In this document: piece by piece, positions 4,266 to 64,000 of the stretch
How the letters are laid out: each line of letters starts with the position of its first letter
Numbering within the stretch: the stretch's first letter is position 1
From: Escherichia phage vB_EcoM_PHB05
Length of the DNA stretch: 64,000 nucleotides
Sequence record: NC_052652.1
Strand: one strand, 5' to 3'
Made by a program: the position numbers and the translations under genes
The notes under the pieces: generated by a model
Told to the model about the DNA's origin: nothing
The model's input: the letters and a program-made list of their open reading frames with translations, nothing else
Database searches by the model: none

Positions 4266-4650
4266 CTACACTCTCCTTCAATTGTTCAATAGCATCTGCT
4301 GCTTCAATATACTTACCTTTATACATTGCTTTTAAAGCCTTACGAACAAGATCATCGTCCGTGTATAAATCAATTAGCTGATTAGCTAACTCAATTTTTA
4401 CAGGATTTTTTAAGTTAGGGTAGGCTTCATACAACATATTGTAATATTTATCACTCAATTCTTTTTCAATATGAATAACGTGAATCGCTTTGTTTAGGTT
4501 GATCACACGATCACCTTTGTTTCGACAAGCATACTTAGCTAACTTAGTGAAACAAGGAGTTGCACCAATTAGATATGCAAGTTCCAAAGGTTGCATACGC
4601 ATACGTTTGTAGTGATCACCATCAATTTGAATATCCAGTGCTGTAGTCAT
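4249..4650 (-). CDS. hypothetical protein
   Basis: 133-aa ORF. Confidence 0.4.
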   Translation of the reverse strand: MTTALDIQIDGDHYKRMRMQPLELAYLIGATPCFTKLAKYACRNKGDRVINLNKAIHVIHIEKELSDKYYNMLYEAYPNLKNPVKIELANQLIDLYTDDDLVRKALKAMYKGKYIEAADAIEQLKESVDGFSR

Positions 4651-4665
4651 AAATCCTCCAAAAAT

Positions 4666-4687
4666 AAAGGGGCTTTCGCCCCTTTTT
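4666..4687. terminator. bidirectional intrinsic terminator hairpin
   Basis: AAAGGGGC-TTTC-GCCCCTTTT, A-run upstream and T-run downstream. Confidence 0.6.
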
Positions 4688-4688
4688 A

Positions 4689-5651
4689 TTAAATTCCAAT
4701 AACAGTGTTTACACGCTTCTCTTTGCTACGCAAATTAACACGTCCACGAGACAGGCTATTACATGATGTGCATCTTAGCACTTGGAATGTACTAACCGCT
4801 GTTGTGTAAACCTTACCAGGAACAACTTCAAGGTGCTCTTTACCGCAACGAGGACAACGAAGTTTTTCATCGTCATAGAATGCAGATACGTTAGGATGTT
4901 GTGGAATCCACGCACGAAGTTTGATGTAAAGATCTCTAAGAGAAACAACATCACCATCGTTGTATGTTTGCATACGGAAGAAGGCGTGTCTGTCTCCTTC
5001 ACAACATGCTTTCCACAAAGGAAAACCTTCATTATCAAGTTTAAAGTTTTCTGTATCAAAATACAAACACATTTCTTTAAGCGCATTAGAAGGTAGTGCA
5101 AACTGCTTCTTAGCTGCCTTGAGTGTATCAATTACAACATAGTGTGATGGTGGCTCCATACCGTGAAAAGCAAAACGTTGGTTAATATAAGCCTTATCAA
5201 ACTTAATACCGTTGTGCGCGATCACAATATCTGCATCGTCAAGCAAGTGCCACAGATCTTGACATAATTCCCAATCATCTGTATGATCTATGTCAAACAG
5301 AGGGTAATTGCTAAGGTTCTTACCTTCTACTTCTCCTGTTTCTAAATCAGCAGATGAATAGGAAAGCAAGTAACCTCGACGAATAACTTGTTCAGGTGCA
5401 ATAAAGGCTTTGAAACGTGAGAAGCTATACACAATCTCCGGTGCTGTCTCTACGTCAATAATTTTAATTACTGGCCCACCTTTATCTTGCGGAGCACCGC
5501 GATGTGGTGAATTTACACGAGCTAAGTAATCATTTACTGTGCTCTTCTTAGTAGAACTTCCCAACACCTCTTGTGCAATCTTACGCGAAGAATAACCTTG
5601 TGCTTTCATAGATACAATCAAGGCTTTCTGTTCGTCTGTTAATTTACTCAA
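4689..5651 (-). CDS. DnaQ-like 3'-5' exonuclease with N-terminal HTH and C-terminal zinc ribbon
   Basis: TTG start after AGGAGG; IIDVETAP, HNGIKFD, YNDGD exonuclease motifs; N-terminal GYSSRKIAQEV HTH-like; C-terminal CPRCG...CTSCN. Confidence 0.5.
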   Translation of the reverse strand: MSKLTDEQKALIVSMKAQGYSSRKIAQEVLGSSTKKSTVNDYLARVNSPHRGAPQDKGGPVIKIIDVETAPEIVYSFSRFKAFIAPEQVIRRGYLLSYSSADLETGEVEGKNLSNYPLFDIDHTDDWELCQDLWHLLDDADIVIAHNGIKFDKAYINQRFAFHGMEPPSHYVVIDTLKAAKKQFALPSNALKEMCLYFDTENFKLDNEGFPLWKACCEGDRHAFFRMQTYNDGDVVSLRDLYIKLRAWIPQHPNVSAFYDDEKLRCPRCGKEHLEVVPGKVYTTAVSTFQVLRCTSCNSLSRGRVNLRSKEKRVNTVIGI

Positions 5652-6682
5652 TGTTCCTCCTGCTCTGAAATATATGCTTGTAGCATACTTTCAAAAGTTG
5701 TTTCATCATTCGCCCAACGTTTCATATATACCAACTGAAAAATTGTCTCTATCCATTCGTCAGTTGTCATCTCTACTTCTTCACCATCCCAAGAAGTAAA
5801 TTTAACGCCATCTGGGAACCATTCATAATACTGATCTTTAACTGTCTGAAAAAGTTCAGCCTGTGTTTTACATTTGGAAATAAGATTAAAGCAAGTAATA
5901 TCTCCAAACTTAACATCGAAATCTTGGTAAGGTCGAATACTATCTGTCTTATCGCCCATTAACATTTGATAAGCTAACCAGTAACTACCCCAACCCTTAA
6001 TTTCTTTTTTCTTACCTTTTTCTACGATCCAGATATCACCGATAGATTCATCAATCAGAATAATGCAAGGATTTTTATAAACACCATCCTCTTTATAAAA
6101 GTTAAAGAGTAAACTTGGTGTGTGCAAGCTATCTTTGTCGATAGATGCTACAATATGAGAAAACTTACCAGTTTCCTTGTAGGCTTTATACCCTGCATAT
6201 CCATAGATTTCTAAAGCATCATCTGCCTCAATACCAGTAACAACGTCACCGTTATGTTTTTCAACTAGATAATCTTTAGTATCTGATAAATGGATTGGTC
6301 TTAAATCTGATCGTTCTGATTTATATTCTTTTGGCATTTTGAAAGAATGCCGGAAGGTTTTTCCTACCCCGATGACACCGCAATACTTTTGAAGTTTTAG
6401 GTGATCCATCATCTGGGTTATTTTTGTCTTTGCAGCTTGAAACGTAAAAGAAATATTATCTGGAACTATTTGAACGTCTTTTATTTCAAAATCTTCTCTA
6501 GAGAACAACTTCTTACCAGCAGCTTCGCGTTGCGCGTTAAGTGCTCCTAGCCATCCTCCAATATTTTTTGAAGATTTACCCCAAAAGTCTGTTCTTGTTT
6601 CAAACTCTTTTACATTACCGGAAGCCTTATGTACAGCGTGGATTTTTCTTTGTTCTAAAGCTGAAGATGCTTGGAACGCCAC
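5648..6682 (-). CDS. FEN-like 5'-3' exonuclease / flap endonuclease
   Basis: GIEADD, IVASIDKD and LMGDKTDSI motifs resemble T5 D15 / T4 RNase H family; start codon uncertain (GTG at 6682 or internal ATG). Confidence 0.5.
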   Translation of the reverse strand: MAFQASSALEQRKIHAVHKASGNVKEFETRTDFWGKSSKNIGGWLGALNAQREAAGKKLFSREDFEIKDVQIVPDNISFTFQAAKTKITQMMDHLKLQKYCGVIGVGKTFRHSFKMPKEYKSERSDLRPIHLSDTKDYLVEKHNGDVVTGIEADDALEIYGYAGYKAYKETGKFSHIVASIDKDSLHTPSLLFNFYKEDGVYKNPCIILIDESIGDIWIVEKGKKKEIKGWGSYWLAYQMLMGDKTDSIRPYQDFDVKFGDITCFNLISKCKTQAELFQTVKDQYYEWFPDGVKFTSWDGEEVEMTTDEWIETIFQLVYMKRWANDETTFESMLQAYISEQEEH

Positions 6683-47391: not shown

Positions 47392-49965
47392 ATGTCAACT
47401 ACAATTACTAATTTACCAGAAACATCAAAAGTTAATGATTCTGATTACCTGGTTTTAGACCAATCTGATAAGACTGTTAAAAGCACAGTTTCCAAATTTC
47501 TTGCTGACACTGGGGTGGTTTTAGCCACCCAGTTGAAAGATACAGATGGAGCAGATTTAATACAATCCTCAAATGGTAATACTGTTCAGGAAGAGTTGAA
47601 TAACAATCTTCTTAATGATCGTGAACAGTGGCGTCGTAGTCTTGCAGAGGCAGGGTTAACACTTGTCGATGGTAGCTTTGAAGAGGGGGCTACAGTGGGC
47701 AGTGTAACTGATGCTATCTGGTACATGGCAGGTGCTCAGTGCTACACATGGGATGGTGTATTACCTAAAGACGTACCACCTAAATCAACCCCGACATCAA
47801 CTGGTGGTGTTGATTCTGGTGCTTGGGTTAGTGTTGGTGATATGTCATTAAAGGATAATCTTTCAAACTCCAGTAATGATAATTACGGTGATGCGCTGGT
47901 AGCAGTTAAGCAGCCGTATACTACCGCAATAAACAGAACGCAGCATGATAAAAATGCTGATGTACTTGATATTTCTGATTTTGGTGTAGATATAACTGGT
48001 GCTTCTGATGAGGGCAGTAAGTTACAACAGATATTTAATGAGTTGGCCGCAGCAGGCAAGTCTATTCGTATGCACGGGTCTGTAAAGACTACTATTAACT
48101 TAGATATACGGTGTAATGTGCTGTTTGAACCAGGGTTTAAATTAACTGGCGTGAAGCTAGAAACTGGACCGCAGACCTACATTAATATTTTTAATCGTAA
48201 TATAGATGTAAGCCATATTGTTCTAGATGGCATTGTTATGTGTTTCTACCCTGTAAGTTCCACGACTACTGTTAGAAACAAGAGATGTATTACGTTTACA
48301 TCAAATACGTTAGAAGACTCGTGTGTCCGGGTGGGCGGTGATAACCTCTCTGTGCGTAACGTGTTAATTTCTAACAATACTTTTAAGAACTCCGGGTCAC
48401 GTGTTCCAACAGCAATTCGCCTAATCAATGTCTCAAACGTTGAGGTAAGTTTTAACCTTATCCAGGAGTATGGTAGGCCTATTTATCAAACAGCAACTCG
48501 CTCTTTCTCTAACTACAATGTCAATATACACCACAATAATGTGGTTTGTGATTATGGTATAGTTCTTGAGGGTACTACTGCTTTTAGAGTTAGTAAGTTC
48601 ACAATTGCTGACAATGACATTGTTTGTGAGGTAAGGAACACAGCAGCAGGTGGACGAGATGCGATTGATGTCCGCTATGGCACTAGCGGACAAATACTCA
48701 ATAACAACATCAGAACTAATGGCAGAAACATTCGTTTATCCAATACTAAAGCTGATGTTCTATTTAATGATATGGTATCGAGTGCAACAAGTGCATTCTC
48801 TGTATTGATGGCTAGTTGCTATGAATCATCTTTTATTGGTAATAAAGTTTTCAATAATTCTACTGCTGAAATTATTGTTGTGCATGTGCAGACAGAGGCT
48901 GGAGGTCTTTACACGAGTAACAACGTAAGAATCGAATCCAACACTATCAAAGGTTTTGGTCGTCTGATTCGTGTGTTGGACACCAAGGATTATGTTGTTA
49001 CTAACAATAGATTAATAAGGACTTCAAACAATGGTAATGCAGTTATTGTTGCAGATGGTACTAGTGACAGAGGCCAGGTGCATAGCAATGTGGTAGTTGG
49101 TCCTGCTGGGGTTGTTGTATCTAGTATCAGCGGAACCAACAATGCAACAACCACTGCTGATACACTTCTGAGTGTTGCAGCTAACAGCAAGACCGTAACA
49201 GCCGTGGCGAATGGATTAGTTGATCCAGACTTGAATAATTCGAAGGCATTCATCTTCAATGTTCAGGTATCTGATGTTCAGATGTTACGAGCTTTATCAT
49301 CAACTGGTGCATCAAACGCCAAGACAGTATCTCAATTCATGGCTAGGGTATCCGGTGCAACCTTAGCTTGGAATGGTACTGCCTCAGTATCTGAAGTGGG
49401 TGGACCACCTGACATCTTCGTAAATGGTGTTCTTCAAGACTCATACGGTGCAGAAGATTATATATTCTACCGGTCAGGTATGCTTATTGACTCACAGAAT
49501 AAACTCAGTGTCCGTGACTTCCAGTGTACTGGCGATGGGGATACTACCGATGATGGTACAGGGGAAATGACGCTCCGTAATATGGCAGCAGCACAAGCAG
49601 CTGAGGGGGCTATTCACAGCGCATTCTTCCGTTCTCCTCTGGTTATGGATGGGGTTATTTACAATCCTGACACCACAGGAATTTATAAAAAATCTTACTT
49701 TGATACATCTCTAGATCCTAGAATGGCTATAGGACAAAAAGCTGATGGAACCTACGTTATTATTTGTGTTAATGGTAGATACGCAGATGGGGTAAGTCCA
49801 GGCTGCACTATGCAGCAGCTAGCATCTAAGTTTGTAGCCCTGGGTTGTATCAACGCAATGAACTTGGATGGCGGTGGTTCAGCTACTCTTTGGTATAACG
49901 GTACTATCCTTAATACCCCGTCGGATGGAAGTGAACGCCCTGTTTACCATTGTATGTATGTGTAA
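47392..49965 (+). CDS. tailspike protein with beta-helix-like central region
   Basis: 857 aa; N-terminal anchor-like region; Asn-rich repeats (NNTFKNSG, NNNIRTNG, NNRLIRTSNNGN); last 211 nt are part of the tandem duplication. Confidence 0.5.
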   Translation: MSTTITNLPETSKVNDSDYLVLDQSDKTVKSTVSKFLADTGVVLATQLKDTDGADLIQSSNGNTVQEELNNNLLNDREQWRRSLAEAGLTLVDGSFEEGATVGSVTDAIWYMAGAQCYTWDGVLPKDVPPKSTPTSTGGVDSGAWVSVGDMSLKDNLSNSSNDNYGDALVAVKQPYTTAINRTQHDKNADVLDISDFGVDITGASDEGSKLQQIFNELAAAGKSIRMHGSVKTTINLDIRCNVLFEPGFKLTGVKLETGPQTYINIFNRNIDVSHIVLDGIVMCFYPVSSTTTVRNKRCITFTSNTLEDSCVRVGGDNLSVRNVLISNNTFKNSGSRVPTAIRLINVSNVEVSFNLIQEYGRPIYQTATRSFSNYNVNIHHNNVVCDYGIVLEGTTAFRVSKFTIADNDIVCEVRNTAAGGRDAIDVRYGTSGQILNNNIRTNGRNIRLSNTKADVLFNDMVSSATSAFSVLMASCYESSFIGNKVFNNSTAEIIVVHVQTEAGGLYTSNNVRIESNTIKGFGRLIRVLDTKDYVVTNNRLIRTSNNGNAVIVADGTSDRGQVHSNVVVGPAGVVVSSISGTNNATTTADTLLSVAANSKTVTAVANGLVDPDLNNSKAFIFNVQVSDVQMLRALSSTGASNAKTVSQFMARVSGATLAWNGTASVSEVGGPPDIFVNGVLQDSYGAEDYIFYRSGMLIDSQNKLSVRDFQCTGDGDTTDDGTGEMTLRNMAAAQAAEGAIHSAFFRSPLVMDGVIYNPDTTGIYKKSYFDTSLDPRMAIGQKADGTYVIICVNGRYADGVSPGCTMQQLASKFVALGCINAMNLDGGGSATLWYNGTILNTPSDGSERPVYHCMYV

Positions 49966-50004
49966 TTATCTGGTGGGACTGAGCTAATGGCGTAGATTTC
50001 ATAG

Positions 50005-50027
50005 CAAAAAACCCCGCTTCGGCGGGG
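50005..50027. terminator. GC hairpin CCCCGC-TTCG-GCGGGG preceded by A-run (T-run on minus strand); second copy at 50595-50617
   Basis: Perfect 6-bp stem; U-tract orientation fits a minus-strand terminator although flanking genes are plus-strand. Confidence 0.4.
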
Positions 50028-50057
50028 TAATCATTGAGAATAACAATAGGAGTACAT

Positions 50058-50156
50058 ATGGAATCTCAACTCAGTCAACCTAAGCAGGTTATCAACGTCA
50101 AAGTGAACAAGCAGAGTATCGCTCATGATTTAAAAAGTAATGAGAACGCACTATGA
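50058..50156 (+). CDS. small ORF (32 aa) translationally coupled to holin-like gene
   Basis: AGGAG RBS; stop overlaps next start (ATGA); second copy at 50648-50746. Confidence 0.3.
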   Translation: MESQLSQPKQVINVKVNKQSIAHDLKSNENAL

Positions 50157-50362
50157 GAAAATTTTTAATAGGTATGTTCTGTACATATCCTGATAATAAA
50201 GTCAGTTCTACTAAAGTTTGGAATGCTATTGGTATGATTGTTATGTCCAGTATGTTTATTTATTTGGGAATTGATAAAGAAATTCCTGAATGGATGGGCT
50301 GGGCTTTTGTTTTTATGATCACACCATCCAGACTAATGAAGAATCGTTATTATTTGTGTTAA
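50153..50362 (+). CDS. holin-like small membrane protein, copy 1 with C-terminus altered by duplication junction
   Basis: Two hydrophobic segments; reads from codon 65 into the duplicated tailspike 3' fragment (ends RYYLC). Confidence 0.35.
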   Translation: MRKFLIGMFCTYPDNKVSSTKVWNAIGMIVMSSMFIYLGIDKEIPEWMGWAFVFMITPSRLMKNRYYLC

Positions 50363-50555
50363 TGGTAGATACGCAGATGGGGTAAGTCCAGGCTGCACTA
50401 TGCAGCAGCTAGCATCTAAGTTTGTAGCCCTGGGTTGTATCAACGCAATGAACTTGGATGGCGGTGGTTCAGCTACTCTTTGGTATAACGGTACTATCCT
50501 TAATACCCCGTCGGATGGAAGTGAACGCCCTGTTTACCATTGTATGTATGTGTAA
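50345..50555 (+). pseudogene. duplicated 3' fragment of tailspike gene 47392-49965 (no start codon)
   Basis: Identical to 49755-49965. Confidence 0.5.
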
Positions 50556-50934
50556 TTATCTGGTGGGACTGAGCTAATGGCGTAGATTTCATAGCAAAAA
50601 ACCCCGCTTCGGCGGGGTAATCATTGAGAATAACAATAGGAGTACATATGGAATCTCAACTCAGTCAACCTAAGCAGGTTATCAACGTCAAAGTGAACAA
50701 GCAGAGTATCGCTCATGATTTAAAAAGTAATGAGAACGCACTATGAGAAAATTTTTAATAGGTATGTTCTGTACATATCCTGATAATAAAGTCAGTTCTA
50801 CTAAAGTTTGGAATGCTATTGGTATGATTGTTATGTCCAGTATGTTTATTTATTTGGGAATTGATAAAGAAATTCCTGAATGGATGGGCTGGGCTTTTGT
50901 TTTTATGATCACACCATCCAGACTAATGAAGAAT
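50345..50934 (+). repeat. tandem direct repeat, copy 2 (590 bp)
   Basis: Identical to 49755-50344 at every spot checked. Confidence 0.85.
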
Positions 50935-59480: not shown

Positions 59481-62300
59481 ATGTATCCTATTCCTTTATT
59501 TATGTCAACAACATCAGCTTCAGTAGTAACAGCTACATCTATAACCACTTCCTCTATTGGTATTGCAATAGTTGGTAGTAAAAAGCAACTGACATACACA
59601 GTTTCACCAGAAGATGGTGCGTTATTTGATATAGCTTTTTCATCTTCAGATAATACCAAAATGGTTATAGATAATAATGGTATGATGGAGTTTGTTGCTG
59701 AAGGCGGTTTTGATGCAATAATGACAGCTAAAAATAATTTAGGTGCTGTCTTAACTGATCAATCTGGTGGCTATGCTTCAGAATTAAGTGTGTACACTGA
59801 AAGTCTGTCTGCTATGGATGCAGGAACTACTCAACAATTGGTTGCTACAATCAGTCCAGAAGGTGCTAAAGACCTTCCAGACATGGTGATTACGTACACC
59901 ACAACAGATCCAGAAGTAGCTACTGTAAGTCCTACAGGGTTAATAACTGCTCTTAAAGATGGTAGTTGCCGTATAGGTTGTACTGCAACTTATCAAGGAA
60001 CAGTGGTGGCCTCTGATAGTTCTTATTTAGGTGTTAATGCTGTTCCTGTTATTTCTAATGTAACAGCCGTGGCAAACAGCTATGGAGACATTCGTGTTGC
60101 TTGGGATGTAGCTGATCCGCTAGATGGTGATACTTATACTGTAGAAGTATTAGATTTAAGTAATAACAGTGTCCAGTGGACTACAACAACCACGAATACT
60201 CATGCTTACTTTGATATCTCTGACTCTATTCCTCTTTATGGGTTTGCTCCAACATACCTTAAAATTAGCGTTAAGAGCACCAAAGCAGCACCCGTTATCT
60301 TTAATAACTCAATAGCTACAGATGATTCGTTCATTAAAGAAGTTATTGTCTTTGCTGGACAAGATAACGTAAATGCACACTTTACAGAACTATCTGGTGC
60401 AAATAAAGCAGTAATGAGTAGCACAACAACCCGTAATGCATATGCTACGCAACGTGGTTTAGCAAATGCTGAAGTTCTTCCGTTAAATGCAGCTTCTGGA
60501 TCATCAGCAGCAGATAAATATGCAGATGATAAAGCCGGAACAGGTACACCAGACAACTACTGGTATGATCTGGATAACGCAGCAGATGGGCCATGCTTAA
60601 CTAATTTTATCACTAAAGTCACACCTTATGCAAGTAAGGTTAAAGCAATTATTTGGGGACAAGGTGAAAATGATGCTGTATCAGCATCTTCGACTGTTGC
60701 AGGTAGATACAGTAACACTACACGTTACCATGATGCTACGATAGCTATCTTTGATAAGATGCGTACAATAGTTCCTGCTTCTCAAGCAAAAATTGTTTGG
60801 CAGATCCTAGGACGTTCTTATCTATATGGTGTAGAAGTTAATGGTGTGGATTGGCAGAAATACAGAAATGTACAAAGAACCATCTCTACAGCACGTGACG
60901 ATGTTATCATTGGTTCTTGGGTGGATGGTGCTGAACGCTACAGTGGTTATGTTTATGAAGAAGGTATTGATGGTCGTATCCATTATATTTCTTCTGTATA
61001 CCAAACAGCAGCTACAAAACTTGCTAAATCAGCAGCAGACGGTACAGACTTAACATCAACATCACCTGTTTGGGTTGATATGGCTGTTCCAACTGGAGCA
61101 ACAGCTATTTCCCAAGCTAATCAAGATACAATTTTAGCATGGGATGCTCAAGGTTATAGTAAACACTACTTCCGTAATATTAACGTCTTAACAGCATCTG
61201 TATTAACTGAACAAACGCTTAATACGAACAGTTATACGTTTACCTATGCAGATCAAGTAGAACAATATGGTTTTGCAGCAGGTACTACGATATTTGATGT
61301 TGCATATTATGACGAAGCAAATGATGTGTTATCTCCTTTAGTACGTTTTAATGTTAGCGTTACAGCAGGAAAAGTAGAAGATAAACCTGTCGTGATGGAC
61401 TATGATTTGACGCAAGAAACTCTTCCATCAGATGTTAAGGTTAATGGTGGGAACTCTTTTGCTCGTGCCTCTGGAGATATACTTGTAGCCACTAACACCT
61501 TGGTTGCTCCGTTGGAGTATGTTGGTACTACCCCTGTAGGTAGACGTGTAACAGCTAACACAGCTACACAAATTTTTGTCAACAACGCCTTAACAAGTGC
61601 AAGCCCGTGGGTAAAGACCAACTTAACTGTTGCAGCTTCATCTGATAAATCTCCGGCTGGAACTACTGCTAATGTATTCAAATTAACTCCGACTACAACC
61701 TCTGGTAGTCATATCTTAACTGCAACATATACTAACGCGTACAACATATCTGCCGGACGTAACTGGTCTGCCTCTGTTTTCTTGAAAGCGAACGGGATTA
61801 CTAAGGCCAAACTAAGATTAAAAGCAGGAACTGAAGTTAATGAGGGTACTTTTGATTTAGCAGCAGGTACATTCACAGGAAGTGAAGCTAATATTATATC
61901 TATGGGCAACGGTTGGTATCGTGCTATTCTGCATAAAACAGGGATAGCCAAACAGTCCTCCATAAGTTTTGAAATAATTGCCTTGGATGCAACTGGTGCG
62001 GAGATTTTCGCTGGAGATGGTACTAGTAACCTTGCAGTTTGGTTGCCACAGCTTGAAGGTGCTTCTACAGGAGAAACATCAAAAGCTGGATCGCCTTATG
62101 TCTGCACATATCCTGGAAATTTAGGAGGAGTATCCTTCACTATACCAAGGAACGGACATACTGGTGTGGATGTTTACTATTCCAACGGAGACGTTGTTCG
62201 TGATGTATTCTCTGGCACAGCATCTACTTGGACAATAAACTACTCCAGCTTGTACGATTGGGGATCAGTCTTTATTACAGGTTTGAAATATTACGACTAA
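59481..62300 (+). CDS. tail-associated protein with Ig-like (Big_2-type) domains and SASA/SGNH-type carbohydrate esterase domain
   Basis: N-terminal Ig-like repeats; motifs FAGQDN and IWGQGENDA match GQSN / WxQGESD signatures of sialate-O-acetylesterase-like esterases. Confidence 0.5.
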   Translation: MYPIPLFMSTTSASVVTATSITTSSIGIAIVGSKKQLTYTVSPEDGALFDIAFSSSDNTKMVIDNNGMMEFVAEGGFDAIMTAKNNLGAVLTDQSGGYASELSVYTESLSAMDAGTTQQLVATISPEGAKDLPDMVITYTTTDPEVATVSPTGLITALKDGSCRIGCTATYQGTVVASDSSYLGVNAVPVISNVTAVANSYGDIRVAWDVADPLDGDTYTVEVLDLSNNSVQWTTTTTNTHAYFDISDSIPLYGFAPTYLKISVKSTKAAPVIFNNSIATDDSFIKEVIVFAGQDNVNAHFTELSGANKAVMSSTTTRNAYATQRGLANAEVLPLNAASGSSAADKYADDKAGTGTPDNYWYDLDNAADGPCLTNFITKVTPYASKVKAIIWGQGENDAVSASSTVAGRYSNTTRYHDATIAIFDKMRTIVPASQAKIVWQILGRSYLYGVEVNGVDWQKYRNVQRTISTARDDVIIGSWVDGAERYSGYVYEEGIDGRIHYISSVYQTAATKLAKSAADGTDLTSTSPVWVDMAVPTGATAISQANQDTILAWDAQGYSKHYFRNINVLTASVLTEQTLNTNSYTFTYADQVEQYGFAAGTTIFDVAYYDEANDVLSPLVRFNVSVTAGKVEDKPVVMDYDLTQETLPSDVKVNGGNSFARASGDILVATNTLVAPLEYVGTTPVGRRVTANTATQIFVNNALTSASPWVKTNLTVAASSDKSPAGTTANVFKLTPTTTSGSHILTATYTNAYNISAGRNWSASVFLKANGITKAKLRLKAGTEVNEGTFDLAAGTFTGSEANIISMGNGWYRAILHKTGIAKQSSISFEIIALDATGAEIFAGDGTSNLAVWLPQLEGASTGETSKAGSPYVCTYPGNLGGVSFTIPRNGHTGVDVYYSNGDVVRDVFSGTASTWTINYSSLYDWGSVFITGLKYYD

Positions 62301-62303
62301 TAA

Positions 62304-62327
62304 AAAAGGAGCCATTAGGCTCCTTTT
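62304..62327. terminator. bidirectional terminator hairpin AAAAGGAGCC-ATTA-GGCTCCTTTT
   Basis: Perfect stem with flanking A and T runs between convergent genes. Confidence 0.65.
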
Positions 62328-62335
62328 CTTTTATC

Positions 62336-62767
62336 TTAATCAGTGAAAATTACGCTCACATCTTCTTTAGAGAAGAGTTTATGATCTTCACCTTTTGTCT
62401 CAAGAGTTTCATACAGGTTAAGAAGTTCTGAAACATCTTTCTCTACCAGTTTCTTCAATGTTGCAATTTTCTGTTTGCGACTCTTAATACGTTCAGCTAC
62501 GACCTTACGTTGGTATCCAGCAGTACGATAACCTGAGAAAGTTACACCAGTAAGACTTGCAGTTACAGGATCGTAGTGACGTTCAATCTGAAATTTATTA
62601 AAAGGTACAGCGTCATCACGAATAATCTTACCGCCATTACTTACTTGACGAAGACCAGTAACTTGTTCCAGTCGTGCCATAGAAATCTTTGGAGACAGAC
62701 CAGAGTCCAGGTTCATACCGTTGTTAATCAGTGCTTTCAGGGTGATTTTGCTGTTCAGTGTACTCAT
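62336..62767 (-). CDS. hypothetical protein co-transcribed with DNA methyltransferase
   Basis: 143-aa ORF overlapping the MTase 3' end by 44 nt. Confidence 0.4.
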   Translation of the reverse strand: MSTLNSKITLKALINNGMNLDSGLSPKISMARLEQVTGLRQVSNGGKIIRDDAVPFNKFQIERHYDPVTASLTGVTFSGYRTAGYQRKVVAERIKSRKQKIATLKKLVEKDVSELLNLYETLETKGEDHKLFSKEDVSVIFTD

Positions 62768-63455
62768 TTAGTCGTTCCTCCGCTTGCTTAAAAATATTTA
62801 CATCGGCTTCACAGCCTAAGTATTCTCTACCTGTTAAAAGTGCCGCAACTTGTGTTGTTGCACTTCCAGAGAAGAAGTCTAAGACTACATCTCCTTCGTT
62901 GGTATGTATATTAATAAGGTCACAAAACAAAGTCAAGTGTTTTTGTGTTGGATGAAAACGATCTGCTCCTTGATAGATAGGATACTCAAACACACCCTTA
63001 TGGTAGGAAGCATTGAAGGTTGGCTTCGAACCTTTAACACAAACAATAGCCATCTCTTTAGCGTTACTAAGGTAGTTAACACCACTATTGATGGGTACAG
63101 GGTTTGTTTTAATCCATTCAATAGTACGGAACATACGAAAACCAAGCGGTTCAAGGATTTCACGTAGCTCCTGGATCTTCCAGATATCATACCAAACTAT
63201 GCAAGTACCACCTTTTCTAAGCACCCTATAGGCTTCTTTGAATACTTCTTTAAAGTAAGGAATATCTACAACGTCCCAGTCACCAAAGTTGTAAGATACA
63301 CGGAATCTATCCGTATTTTTTCCAGTAGGCTCTCCAGATTGAAAATTTGTGTCACGAGAAATAGCATATGGTGGGTCAGTAAGAATCAAATCTACACTAT
63401 TGCTTTCGAGGGTTTGCAGGTAGTTTAATGCAGTGTTGTTTACAAATTCGCTCAT
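62724..63455 (-). CDS. DNA methyltransferase (N6-adenine or N4-cytosine, beta-class motif order)
   Basis: DPPY catalytic motif near N-terminus and FFSGSATT SAM-binding motif near C-terminus. Confidence 0.7.
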   Translation of the reverse strand: MSEFVNNTALNYLQTLESNSVDLILTDPPYAISRDTNFQSGEPTGKNTDRFRVSYNFGDWDVVDIPYFKEVFKEAYRVLRKGGTCIVWYDIWKIQELREILEPLGFRMFRTIEWIKTNPVPINSGVNYLSNAKEMAIVCVKGSKPTFNASYHKGVFEYPIYQGADRFHPTQKHLTLFCDLINIHTNEGDVVLDFFSGSATTQVAALLTGREYLGCEADVNIFKQAEERLNEYTEQQNHPESTD

Positions 63456-63473
63456 TATATCTCCTTCAAAGAA

Positions 63474-63493
63474 AAGGAGCCGTTAGGCTCCTT
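63474..63493. terminator. hairpin GGAGCC-GTTA-GGCTCC, near-identical to the one at 62304-62327
   Basis: Same 6-bp stem sequence; differs only in loop first base. Confidence 0.5.
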
Positions 63494-63515
63494 ATATTCA
63501 CACAATATTTAACTA

Positions 63516-64000
63516 TTAGAAACAGTGCAGGAAGTTTCGACCATATTGCAAACCAATAGGAGCAAACGGGATATCATCATCGAAATCTTGAACAACAGGT
63601 TCTGGTTCTTTCGGTGCTGGCTCTTTCTTCTCTACTTTTTTAGTTTCTTTCTTAACTTCTTGTACTGGGGTAGACATTCCACGGATAGCCGCAGCTACTT
63701 TATCAGACAAAGCAAGAACTTCACGAGCAGCTTCAATAATCTCTTCTGCCGTTACAGTTTTACCTGTATGATCACGACAAGCGTTAAGAATTGCGTGTCC
63801 AACTGAAGCACCAAGATCATAGTCAGTCACATCAACACCACGATCTTTAGCAATTTCAGCTTTCAGAGTAACAGTTGCAGATTGTACCACACCAGCCAAA
63901 TCGAAAGCATCACCTTTCACACCAGCACGTAGAAGCTCCAGAGCGCCGTTTACAGCGTGTCCTGTTTCAATCCCTACGGTATCACGTTTTTTGTAGTTAG
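63516..64000 (-). CDS. hypothetical protein, C-terminal part (CDS continues beyond window end)
   Basis: Frame open upstream of annotated start through position 64000; Lys/Glu/Pro-rich linker and DFDDDIPF acidic motif near C-terminus. Confidence 0.4.
   Translation of the reverse strand, partial: NYKKRDTVGIETGHAVNGALELLRAGVKGDAFDLAGVVQSATVTLKAEIAKDRGVDVTDYDLGASVGHAILNACRDHTGKTVTAEEIIEAAREVLALSDKVAAAIRGMSTPVQEVKKETKKVEKKEPAPKEPEPVVQDFDDDIPFAPIGLQYGRNFLHCF

Follow-up and report, generated by a model that had tools for sequence, protein, structure and literature searches.

Restriction endonucleases of the NlaIII/IceA1 type, which contain a His-Me nuclease, make up the Pfam family ICEA (PMC5714182). 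In the restriction-modification (R-M) systems NlaIII and IceA1-HpyI such an endonuclease (PF05315) is paired with a cognate adenine methylase, and the target is CATG, the sequence that IceA1 recognises and cuts according to work cited in PMC2816704. Phages are known to carry orphan DNA methyltransferases, the subject of a review cited in PMC12210895, as well as morons, which are defined by a promoter and a terminator of their own and by a deviant GC content (PMC3594210). The subject of this report is a two-gene cassette in a 64,000-nt stretch of Escherichia phage vB_EcoM_PHB05 (NC_052652.1; the whole stretch is called the window below), which consists of a DNA methylase gene and a small overlapping open reading frame (ORF) and is bracketed by two similar hairpins. 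A sequence-only reading of the window had taken the cassette for a moron-like insertion that might protect phage DNA from restriction. Positions 61500-64000 are 98-99% identical to the Justusliebigvirus (phi92-like) coliphages W22, SD2 and PaulScherrer, and the two genes correspond to Phi92_gp155 (the methylase) and Phi92_gp154 (the small ORF) in the annotation of these coliphages. The small ORF is the most interesting part of the cassette: as judged by profile comparison, gp154 is homologous to the N-terminal domain of the NlaIII/IceA1-family (ICEA) restriction endonucleases, and because it is a nuclease-less relative of such an enzyme, the cassette is, on this evidence, a degenerate R-M module in which the nuclease has been disarmed but kept. 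Probably, this module descends from a two-gene system of the NlaIII/IceA1 type, was inserted at the terminator between the tail-fibre and replication genes, where a hairpin now stands on both sides, and encodes a CATG methylase together with a gp154 devoid of a nuclease.

The assignment of gp155 to the beta class of DNA methylases, first made from the motifs DPPY and FFSGSATT, holds. The protein matches the Pfam profile N6_N4_Mtase (PF01555) at 1.8e-30 and 107 bits against a gathering cut-off of 26.7, with residues 21-227 covering positions 1-221 of the 221 in the profile, and its motif order is that of a circular permutation, DPPY (27-30) preceding FFSGSATT (194-201), both motifs being invariant in eight homologues. 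That a small ORF overlaps the methylase gene was equally well seen, the overlap amounting to 44 nt. Direct scans of Pfam and NCBIfam returned no match for gp154, and its sole match in PHROGs was phrog_20244, a family of unknown function. A word-indexed search yielded four clusters of homologues; an alignment with the ORFs of L011 and L012 and an exhaustive hidden Markov model (HMM) search were needed to recover the family, which is small: in a set of 1.84 billion representatives it makes up 43 clusters when grouped at 50% identity. The gp154 profile matches P0172, a 206-aa Pfam ICEA protein, at 1.6e-16; P0172 contains a Cys/His-rich His-Me region (CxxC..DHKH..CxxC) and is encoded directly downstream of a gp155 homologue. 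Residues 12-96 of gp154 were aligned by hhalign with P0172 at a probability of 97.4% (E 1.4e-11), and with an ICEA family of 34 sequences at 96.7% (E 3.5e-10). The predicted structure of gp154, at a predicted local distance difference test score (pLDDT) of 90, comprises a winged-helix-like domain and then a 43-residue helix; Foldseek independently listed a giant-virus 'ICEA1' protein at probability 0.92, and its matches in the PDB were weak and MarR/TFE-like only. No relative of P0172 was found in the PDB by sequence, and its single-sequence AlphaFold2 (AF2) model has a pLDDT of 31.6.

The homology to ICEA stops near residue 96. The sequence of gp154 contains no Cys, no conserved His and no HNH or His-Me region; the catalytic nuclease motif of a Type II R-M system is missing, and cleavage by gp154 alone would not be expected. 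The adjacency of methylase and endonuclease genes that marks such systems is retained, in that gp154 occupies the position of ICEA genes at homologous loci: at least 33 of the 79 bacterial or archaeal loci with gp155 relatives have a full-length ICEA ORF immediately downstream, and at none of the 79 does the short gp154 form stand beside the gp155 homologue. Both gp155 and gp154 are under purifying selection, and the ratio of nonsynonymous to synonymous substitution (dN/dS) of about 0.12 for gp154 marks it as a working gene and not as debris.

Two further observations concern these protein families. The giant proteins P0160 (3257 aa) and P0166 (1734 aa), of unknown origin and with weak, incoherent Pfam matches, contain 22 and 12 repeated stretches, respectively, that match residues 7-43 of the gp154 profile. 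On the phage-like contigs L013 and L014 (~85 kb), a full ICEA gene lies immediately upstream of a 55%-identical gp155 homologue with a 1-nt overlap (4402-5702), a locus that looks like an intact NlaIII-type R-M system within a phage genome.

Acquisition by insertion, as the sequence-only reading had proposed, is supported by the distribution of the cassette: relatives lack both genes and have a single hairpin at the same junction, and the module occurs elsewhere in other contexts. At an identity of at least 95%, gp155 and gp154 were found in all 54 Justusliebigvirus records, which equals the number with a Justusliebigvirus-type end of gp156, the neighbouring gene for a protein resembling single-stranded DNA-binding protein (SSB). 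No phage record had gp155 at 60-95% identity, and about 100 further relatives have gp156 without the cassette. Six cassette-less junctions were read. In ESCO13 and ECO340P2 (Phapecoctavirus), PVP-SE1 (Seunavirus), KB57 and Mydo (Mydovirus) the tail-fibre stop is followed by one bidirectional hairpin and then, with no other feature intervening, by the gp156 stop, which is the collapse of two hairpins to one that had been suggested as a check, and in Citrobacter phage Tr1 an HNH gene is followed by a single hairpin. To this extent the cassette behaves as a moron would, being carried by one phage and missing from that site in relatives. Several of the single hairpins have the GGAGCC/GGCTCC stem of the window. 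Moreover, the outer flanks of the tail-fibre-side hairpin of the window, H1, namely TAATAAAAAAGG... and ...TTTTCTTTTAT, are those of the single hairpins in cassette-less relatives, and the hairpin next to the methylase gene, H2, abuts what is left of the 3' end of an HNH homing-endonuclease gene, just where the single hairpin lies in Tr1 and ECO340P2. Because of this remnant, H2 can be seen to have the replication-side flank, and H1 the tail-fibre-side flank, of the ancestral hairpin, and on comparison of these junctions the hairpin is duplicated around the insert.

The uncultured relatives L006, L007 and L008-10 have the cassette at the same junction, with gp154 56-66% and the methylase 79-85% identical, and the insertion event is therefore old. 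In their DNA polymerase they are closer to Justusliebigvirus (82-87%) than to ESCO13 (74-79%). Elsewhere, a methylase and a gp154-like ORF, usually overlapping, occur in unrelated phage contexts (PhoH/ClpP, Thy1/NT5C, RNR), and in every metagenomic context with a visible upstream gene the gp154-type gene lies directly downstream of a gp155-type methylase gene.

The two hairpins with a common core, AAAAGGAGCC-NTTA-GGCTCCTT, were recovered by a terminator scan at the positions first reported for them (Table 1). They are direct repeats with 21/22 positions identical. The pattern GGAGCCNTTAGGCTCC has exactly two matches in the window against 0.05 expected, a number reached by one of 100 shuffles, and no further copy was found across the ~145-kb genome (here and below, the window completed with the remainder of phage W22, which is near-identical). 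Predicted folding energies are -15.4 kcal/mol for H1 on the plus strand, -18.3 for H1 on the minus strand and -13.6 for H2 on the minus strand, with z-scores of -2.7 to -5.3. Judged by a GC-rich stem-loop with a U-run, H1 is predicted to be an intrinsic terminator on both strands and H2 on the minus strand. H1 stands between two stop codons, that of the tail-fibre gene (62300) and that of gp154 (62336), with an A-run upstream and the T-run TTTTCTTTT downstream, so that termination on both strands is possible; H2 has a good U-run on the minus strand only, its T-run on the plus strand being poor, and is predicted to terminate or attenuate transcripts leaving gp156. The record of phage Paula has terminators annotated at both hairpins, H1 on both strands. 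Within the genus H2 is invariant (eight members compared) and H1 varies in the loop only. In the divergent contig L007 the upstream hairpin and ribosome-binding site (RBS) are identical to those of the window over 34 nt despite saturated synonymous sites in the adjoining genes, which implies constraint or later exchange.

The arms of the hairpins (63461-63493 and 62304-62327 in the window) amount to a Shine-Dalgarno sequence (AAGGAG) and the complement of one (CTCCTT). Read on the minus strand, H2 has a 3' arm that could instead pair with the true RBS of the methylase gene 8 nt downstream, an alternative that might couple hairpin formation to translation. The idea that the hairpins form part of a mobile module was rejected, as L015 has none and those of L006, L008 and L012 are unrelated.

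Table 1. Features of the cassette and its surroundings in the window, with the single hairpins of cassette-less relatives
Feature	Coordinates	Strand	Description
Lateral tail-fibre gene (flank)	59481..62300	+	Converges on the cassette; similarity of relatives breaks at or beside H1
H1, predicted bidirectional intrinsic-terminator hairpin	62304..62327	both	AAAAGGAGCC ATTA GGCTCCTTTT, 10 pairs
Phi92_gp154, 143 aa	62336..62767	-	N-domain homologous to the ICEA N-domain plus 43-residue helix; no His-Me/HNH domain
gp154 RBS	62777..62781	-	GGAGG, 9 nt before the ATG, inside the 3' end of the methylase gene; annotated in phi92
Phi92_gp155, 243 aa	62724..63455	-	Small beta-class DNA methyltransferase of N6-adenine type; DPPY ... 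FFSGSATT
Methylase RBS	63461..63467	-	GAAGGAG, directly after the T-run of H2; annotated in phi92
H2, predicted terminator hairpin and U-run	63468..63493 (hairpin 63493-63474)	-	AAGGAGCC TAAC GGCTCCTT, 8 pairs, then TTCTTT
HNH homing-endonuclease gene remnant	63494..63544	-	11 5' codons, MVETSCTVSNS*, from 63544, and ~20 nt of the 3' end beside H2
Phi92_gp156, 3' part (flank)	63516..64000	-	SSB-like; ...DDDIPF tip plus 15-aa extension; runs off the window
Single hairpin, ECO340P2			AAAGGAGCC ATTT GGCTCCTTT
Single hairpin, PVP-SE1			AAAAGGAGCC GAAA GGCTCCTTTT
Single hairpin, KB57 and Mydo			GGCTCCC NNNN GGGAGCC
Single hairpin, ESCO13			GGGAACC CGCAAA GGTTCCC

A candidate site for the module emerges from tetranucleotide composition, with expectations taken from a maximal-order Markov model. 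CATG is the most under-represented of the 256 tetramers in the phi92-like phage, with 270 occurrences observed versus 519 expected (observed/expected ratio, O/E, 0.52; z -13.7); in cassette-less ESCO13 its O/E is 0.76. CATG also ranks first in avoidance in L006 (0.18), L008 (0.40) and L011 (0.13), and its O/E in L007 and L015 falls below the baseline of 0.65-0.77. The Pseudoalteromonas phage J2-1, which bears a gp154-like gene, has 0 CATG in 56 kb, where ~120 would be expected (106 in the first 50 kb). From this avoidance and from the linkage of gp155-type methylases to ICEA enzymes, we infer that gp155 methylates the adenine of CATG on phage DNA. Simple protection by methylation would not explain everything, since a protected site has no need to be lost; host enzymes directed at CATG may drive the avoidance, or gp154 itself may make the sites costly. 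Protection from restriction, the function first suggested for the methylase, is plausible for one site, probably CATG, and beyond that finds little room: the BASEL study described phi92-like phages carrying gp155 as 'exceptionally susceptible' to the R-M systems tested (PMC8594841), and any protection would therefore be narrow.

A 'Dam-like' annotation of the methylase, with GATC as the site, is unsupported, as GATC has an O/E of 0.99 and the nearest linked endonucleases are of the CATG type. In J2-1 (MF988720.1 1-50000, L111; L027) CCGG is likewise absent from 50 kb, and an HNH endonuclease gene lies two ORFs upstream of the gp154-like gene. The most avoided tetranucleotide in ESCO13 (L110 and L003) is GTAC (O/E 0.28, z -11.7), the avoidance of which is mild in the Justusliebigvirus genome (0.76); this contrast suggests a different restriction history or protection by another phage methylase (W22 genes 42 and 55).

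The rival account closest to the sequence-only reading is that of a classic moron, an autonomous unit of promoter, gene and terminator in which an orphan methylase would be broadly protective and gp154 an unrelated passenger or regulator. The cassette is indeed present or absent among related phages and ends in a terminator (H1), and gp154 has a winged-helix-like fold, which is common among regulators. As an independent transcription unit, however, the cassette is not borne out. Its genes do run opposite to the adjacent tail-fibre genes, but they share the direction of gp156 and the replication operon, the end of which they form, and the phage is virulent. Only 18 nt, comprising the T-run and the RBS, separate H2 from the ATG of the methylase gene, and in every lineage the succession of hairpin, T-run, RBS and ATG leaves no space for a promoter. 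No sigma-70-like site was found in 63456-63560 on the minus strand, phage-specific promoter types lying outside the scan; the sigma-70 scan gave fewer sites than in shuffled sequence, and no conserved motif was seen upstream of H2 among relatives. The cassette shows no compositional anomaly either, its GC content of 0.37-0.405 matching the 0.38-0.44 of the flanks. Given that gp154 shares ancestry with the ICEA N-domain and is inherited together with the methylase, and given how sensitive the BASEL study reports phi92-like phages to be to the R-M systems tested, a classic moron is very improbable. The simplest reading of expression would be partial read-through of H2 from the replication operon, which would supply both gp155 and gp154.

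Two other rivals concern the history of the junction. The cassette could be ancestral and have been deleted in Phapecoctavirus, Tr1 and possibly others through recombination between H1 and H2 that left one hairpin, the window then representing the older state. The near-identical direct repeats are a ready substrate for precise deletion, recombination between them would yield exactly the Tr1 arrangement, and Tr1, although cassette-less, is as close to Justusliebigvirus (polymerase C-terminus 87%, gp156 73%) as cassette-bearing L008 and closer than cassette-bearing L006. At least one loss of the cassette is likely on these grounds, its absence from Phapecoctavirus could also be a loss, and the direction of change is to that extent unsettled. 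Yet the outgroup subfamily Vequintavirinae (PVP-SE1, KB57, Mydo) is also cassette-less with a single hairpin, the module is found in unrelated contexts and so is mobile, and the DNA polymerase groups the bearers of the cassette apart from ESCO13; an ancestral cassette is unlikely, and gain followed by occasional loss fits best. The likeness of the hairpins might, in turn, be convergent or coincidental, reflecting good terminators built on a Shine-Dalgarno-like AAGGAG stem with no duplication. The hairpin upstream of the methylase gene in L006 and L008 has a different stem (AGGGGC.. and GGGGCTGC..), unrelated to that of the downstream hairpin, so that duplication of the hairpin is not a fixed property of the module, and the genome has four or more further hairpin stems that each occur at separate loci. 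The match between H1 and H2 nevertheless exceeds the stem, with three of the four loop positions and the flanking A and T residues in agreement, the stem occurs at these two places only in 145 kb, and the outer flanks of H1 and H2 together rebuild those of the single hairpin of relatives, all of which renders coincidence quite improbable.

Apart from the position of Tr1 and the hairpins of L006 and L008, several results count against the account of an inserted and disarmed NlaIII/IceA1-type module. None of 14 members of the gp154 family matches the Pfam ICEA profile (PF05315) at threshold or even at E <=10, and a typical ICEA protein, from L013, aligns with gp154 at E 0.12 only. The supposition that gp154 always lies beside a methylase had to be rejected, as the gp154-like gene of J2-1 has no adjacent methylase gene. 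CATG fits as the relevant site, a specificity extrapolated from two characterised enzymes; it is mildly under-represented (the baseline given above) even in the absence of gp154, and its depletion goes little or not at all beyond this in L012 (0.65) and the short L018 (1.09). A literature search found no methylome or transcript data for the phi92 group or Stephanstirmvirinae.

The account of an inserted and disarmed R-M module can be put as a sequence of steps. A module made up of the small beta-class N6-adenine methylase gp155 and, in place of the restriction gene, gp154, in which the N-terminal winged-helix-like domain of the enzyme would have been kept and the His-Me nuclease domain replaced by a long helix, would have entered the bidirectional terminator between the tail-fibre and replication blocks in an ancestor that Justusliebigvirus shares with close uncultured relatives. 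A terminator hairpin would have been left on both sides, H1 with the flank that faces the tail fibres and H2 with that facing gp156 and the HNH gene, and the same repeats could also mediate precise loss. Having no promoter of its own, the module would be expressed by transcription that leaks through H2 out of the replication operon, and translation of gp154 would rely on the separate GGAGG before its ATG. The methylase would modify the CATG adenine on phage DNA, and gp154 would bind DNA as a dimer and recognise that site too. It might then counter restriction by NlaIII-type enzymes, whether by occupying sites or by poisoning subunits, or act as some other factor directed at CATG, against which methylation and the loss of CATG sites would protect the phage. 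What is shown of this account is that both proteins are homologous to the R-M families, how the cassette is distributed among relatives, that the flanks are continuous and that selection on both genes is purifying; promoterless expression, CATG methylation and the action of gp154 are inferences. A bolder proposal, which we advance tentatively and hold to be rather unlikely, is that the gp154 family constitutes a new kind of phage factor in which the target-recognition half of an NlaIII-type enzyme has been kept without the nuclease, either to neutralise host CATG restriction, through masked sites or a poisoned dimer of the host enzyme, or to direct a CATG-dependent attack on unmethylated DNA, so that its carriers must methylate CATG, as phi92-like phages would, or purge it completely, as in J2-1.

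Phage 'orphan' methylases are usually seen as single genes of obvious function, and here a fragment of the former restriction partner is conserved as well. If gp154 binds CATG, it would represent a natural conversion of a restriction enzyme into a non-cutting DNA-binding protein and would open a way to test for a new mechanism, of anti-restriction or of self/non-self distinction, in coliphages that are therapeutic candidates. The locus also illustrates cleanly how genes are gained, and probably lost, where a terminator hairpin has been duplicated.

As to the surroundings, gp155 and gp154 are the final two genes of a ~38-kb leftward block of replication and nucleotide-metabolism genes, in which they are preceded on the minus strand by gp156, then DNA polymerase, primase/helicase and further leftward genes; gp156 is the last ancestral gene of this block. 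The plus-strand genes that converge head-on with the cassette encode lateral tail fibres. Similarity of the window to many members of the genus sets in precisely at H1 or at the final bases of the tail-fibre gene (62287-62303), which identifies H1 as a breakpoint of tail-fibre module exchange, and the 3' ends of tail-fibre genes are of at least two types, ..TATTACGACTAA and ..AATGTTACATAA.

The tail-fibre/replication junction was an earlier host of an HNH homing endonuclease, too. Directly after gp156, Tr1 has an intact gene of this kind and L007 most of one; in the window and ECO340P2 only 5' and 3' stubs are left of it. Its footprints lie at 63494-63563 in the window, 2035-2529 in L030, 270-700 in L007 and 4960-5030 in L005. 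In Tr1 the HNH gene stands between gp156 and the single hairpin, its ATG inside a 15-residue extension after the DDDIPF tip, and the start of the remnant in the window (63544) likewise lies inside the 15-aa extension of gp156. This extension, APIGLQYGRNFLHCF, follows the canonical SSB tip DDDIPF and would mask the free C-terminal Phe, the usual binding point of SSB partners; in the phages without an HNH footprint (ESCO13, L006, L008) gp156 ends at DDDIPF.

Further away, the window contains an exact 590-bp tandem duplication (49755-50934, with 49755-50344 equal to 50345-50934), and the repeated segment takes in the 3' part of a tailspike-like gene, a terminator hairpin and the beginning of a gene for a small membrane protein. 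The relatives JLBYU50 and W22 have a single copy of the segment, and the duplication is either a very recent event or an assembly artefact. A second hairpin-bracketed cassette, considered at 50011/50601, was rejected, the identical hairpins being part of this duplication.

Among described systems, NlaIII and IceA1-HpyI come nearest: gp155-type methylases adjoin ICEA endonucleases at no fewer than 33 bacterial loci and on two types of phage contig, and gp154 stands in the position of the endonuclease and has an N-terminal domain of ~85 residues in common with it; gp154 differs in being without the His-Me finger, in ending in a long helix and in its length of 125-143 aa versus 200-245 aa. The best relative of gp155 with a solved structure is M1.HpyAVI (PDB 5HEK/5HFJ; E 8e-29 over 220 residues), and both are small beta-class adenine methylases of the same size and motif order. 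M1.HpyAVI acts at a GAGG-type site, a different specificity, and nothing links gp155 to such a site. Like the morons of HK97 and HK022 (PMC3594210), the cassette is extra DNA between genes that are adjacent in relatives and has a terminator at its end; it departs from them in the lack of an own promoter or a GC difference and in its place at an operon end in a virulent phage. As in PeSL-type cassettes, accessory genes are flanked by stem-loop terminators of almost the same sequence, and mosaic exchange has its breakpoints at these terminators, the tail-fibre similarity stopping at H1; those mobile regulatory cassettes combine a strong early promoter with the stem-loop in many dispersed copies, whereas here no promoter is attached and two copies in ~145 kb do not make a dispersed family. 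With phage orphan methyltransferases such as T4 Dam and P1 Dmt, finally, the cassette shares a phage methylase that has no working cognate endonuclease and is presumed protective, but gp155 is accompanied by a conserved and selected remnant of an endonuclease, and the presumed target site is strongly avoided in the genome, an avoidance not expected from protection alone.

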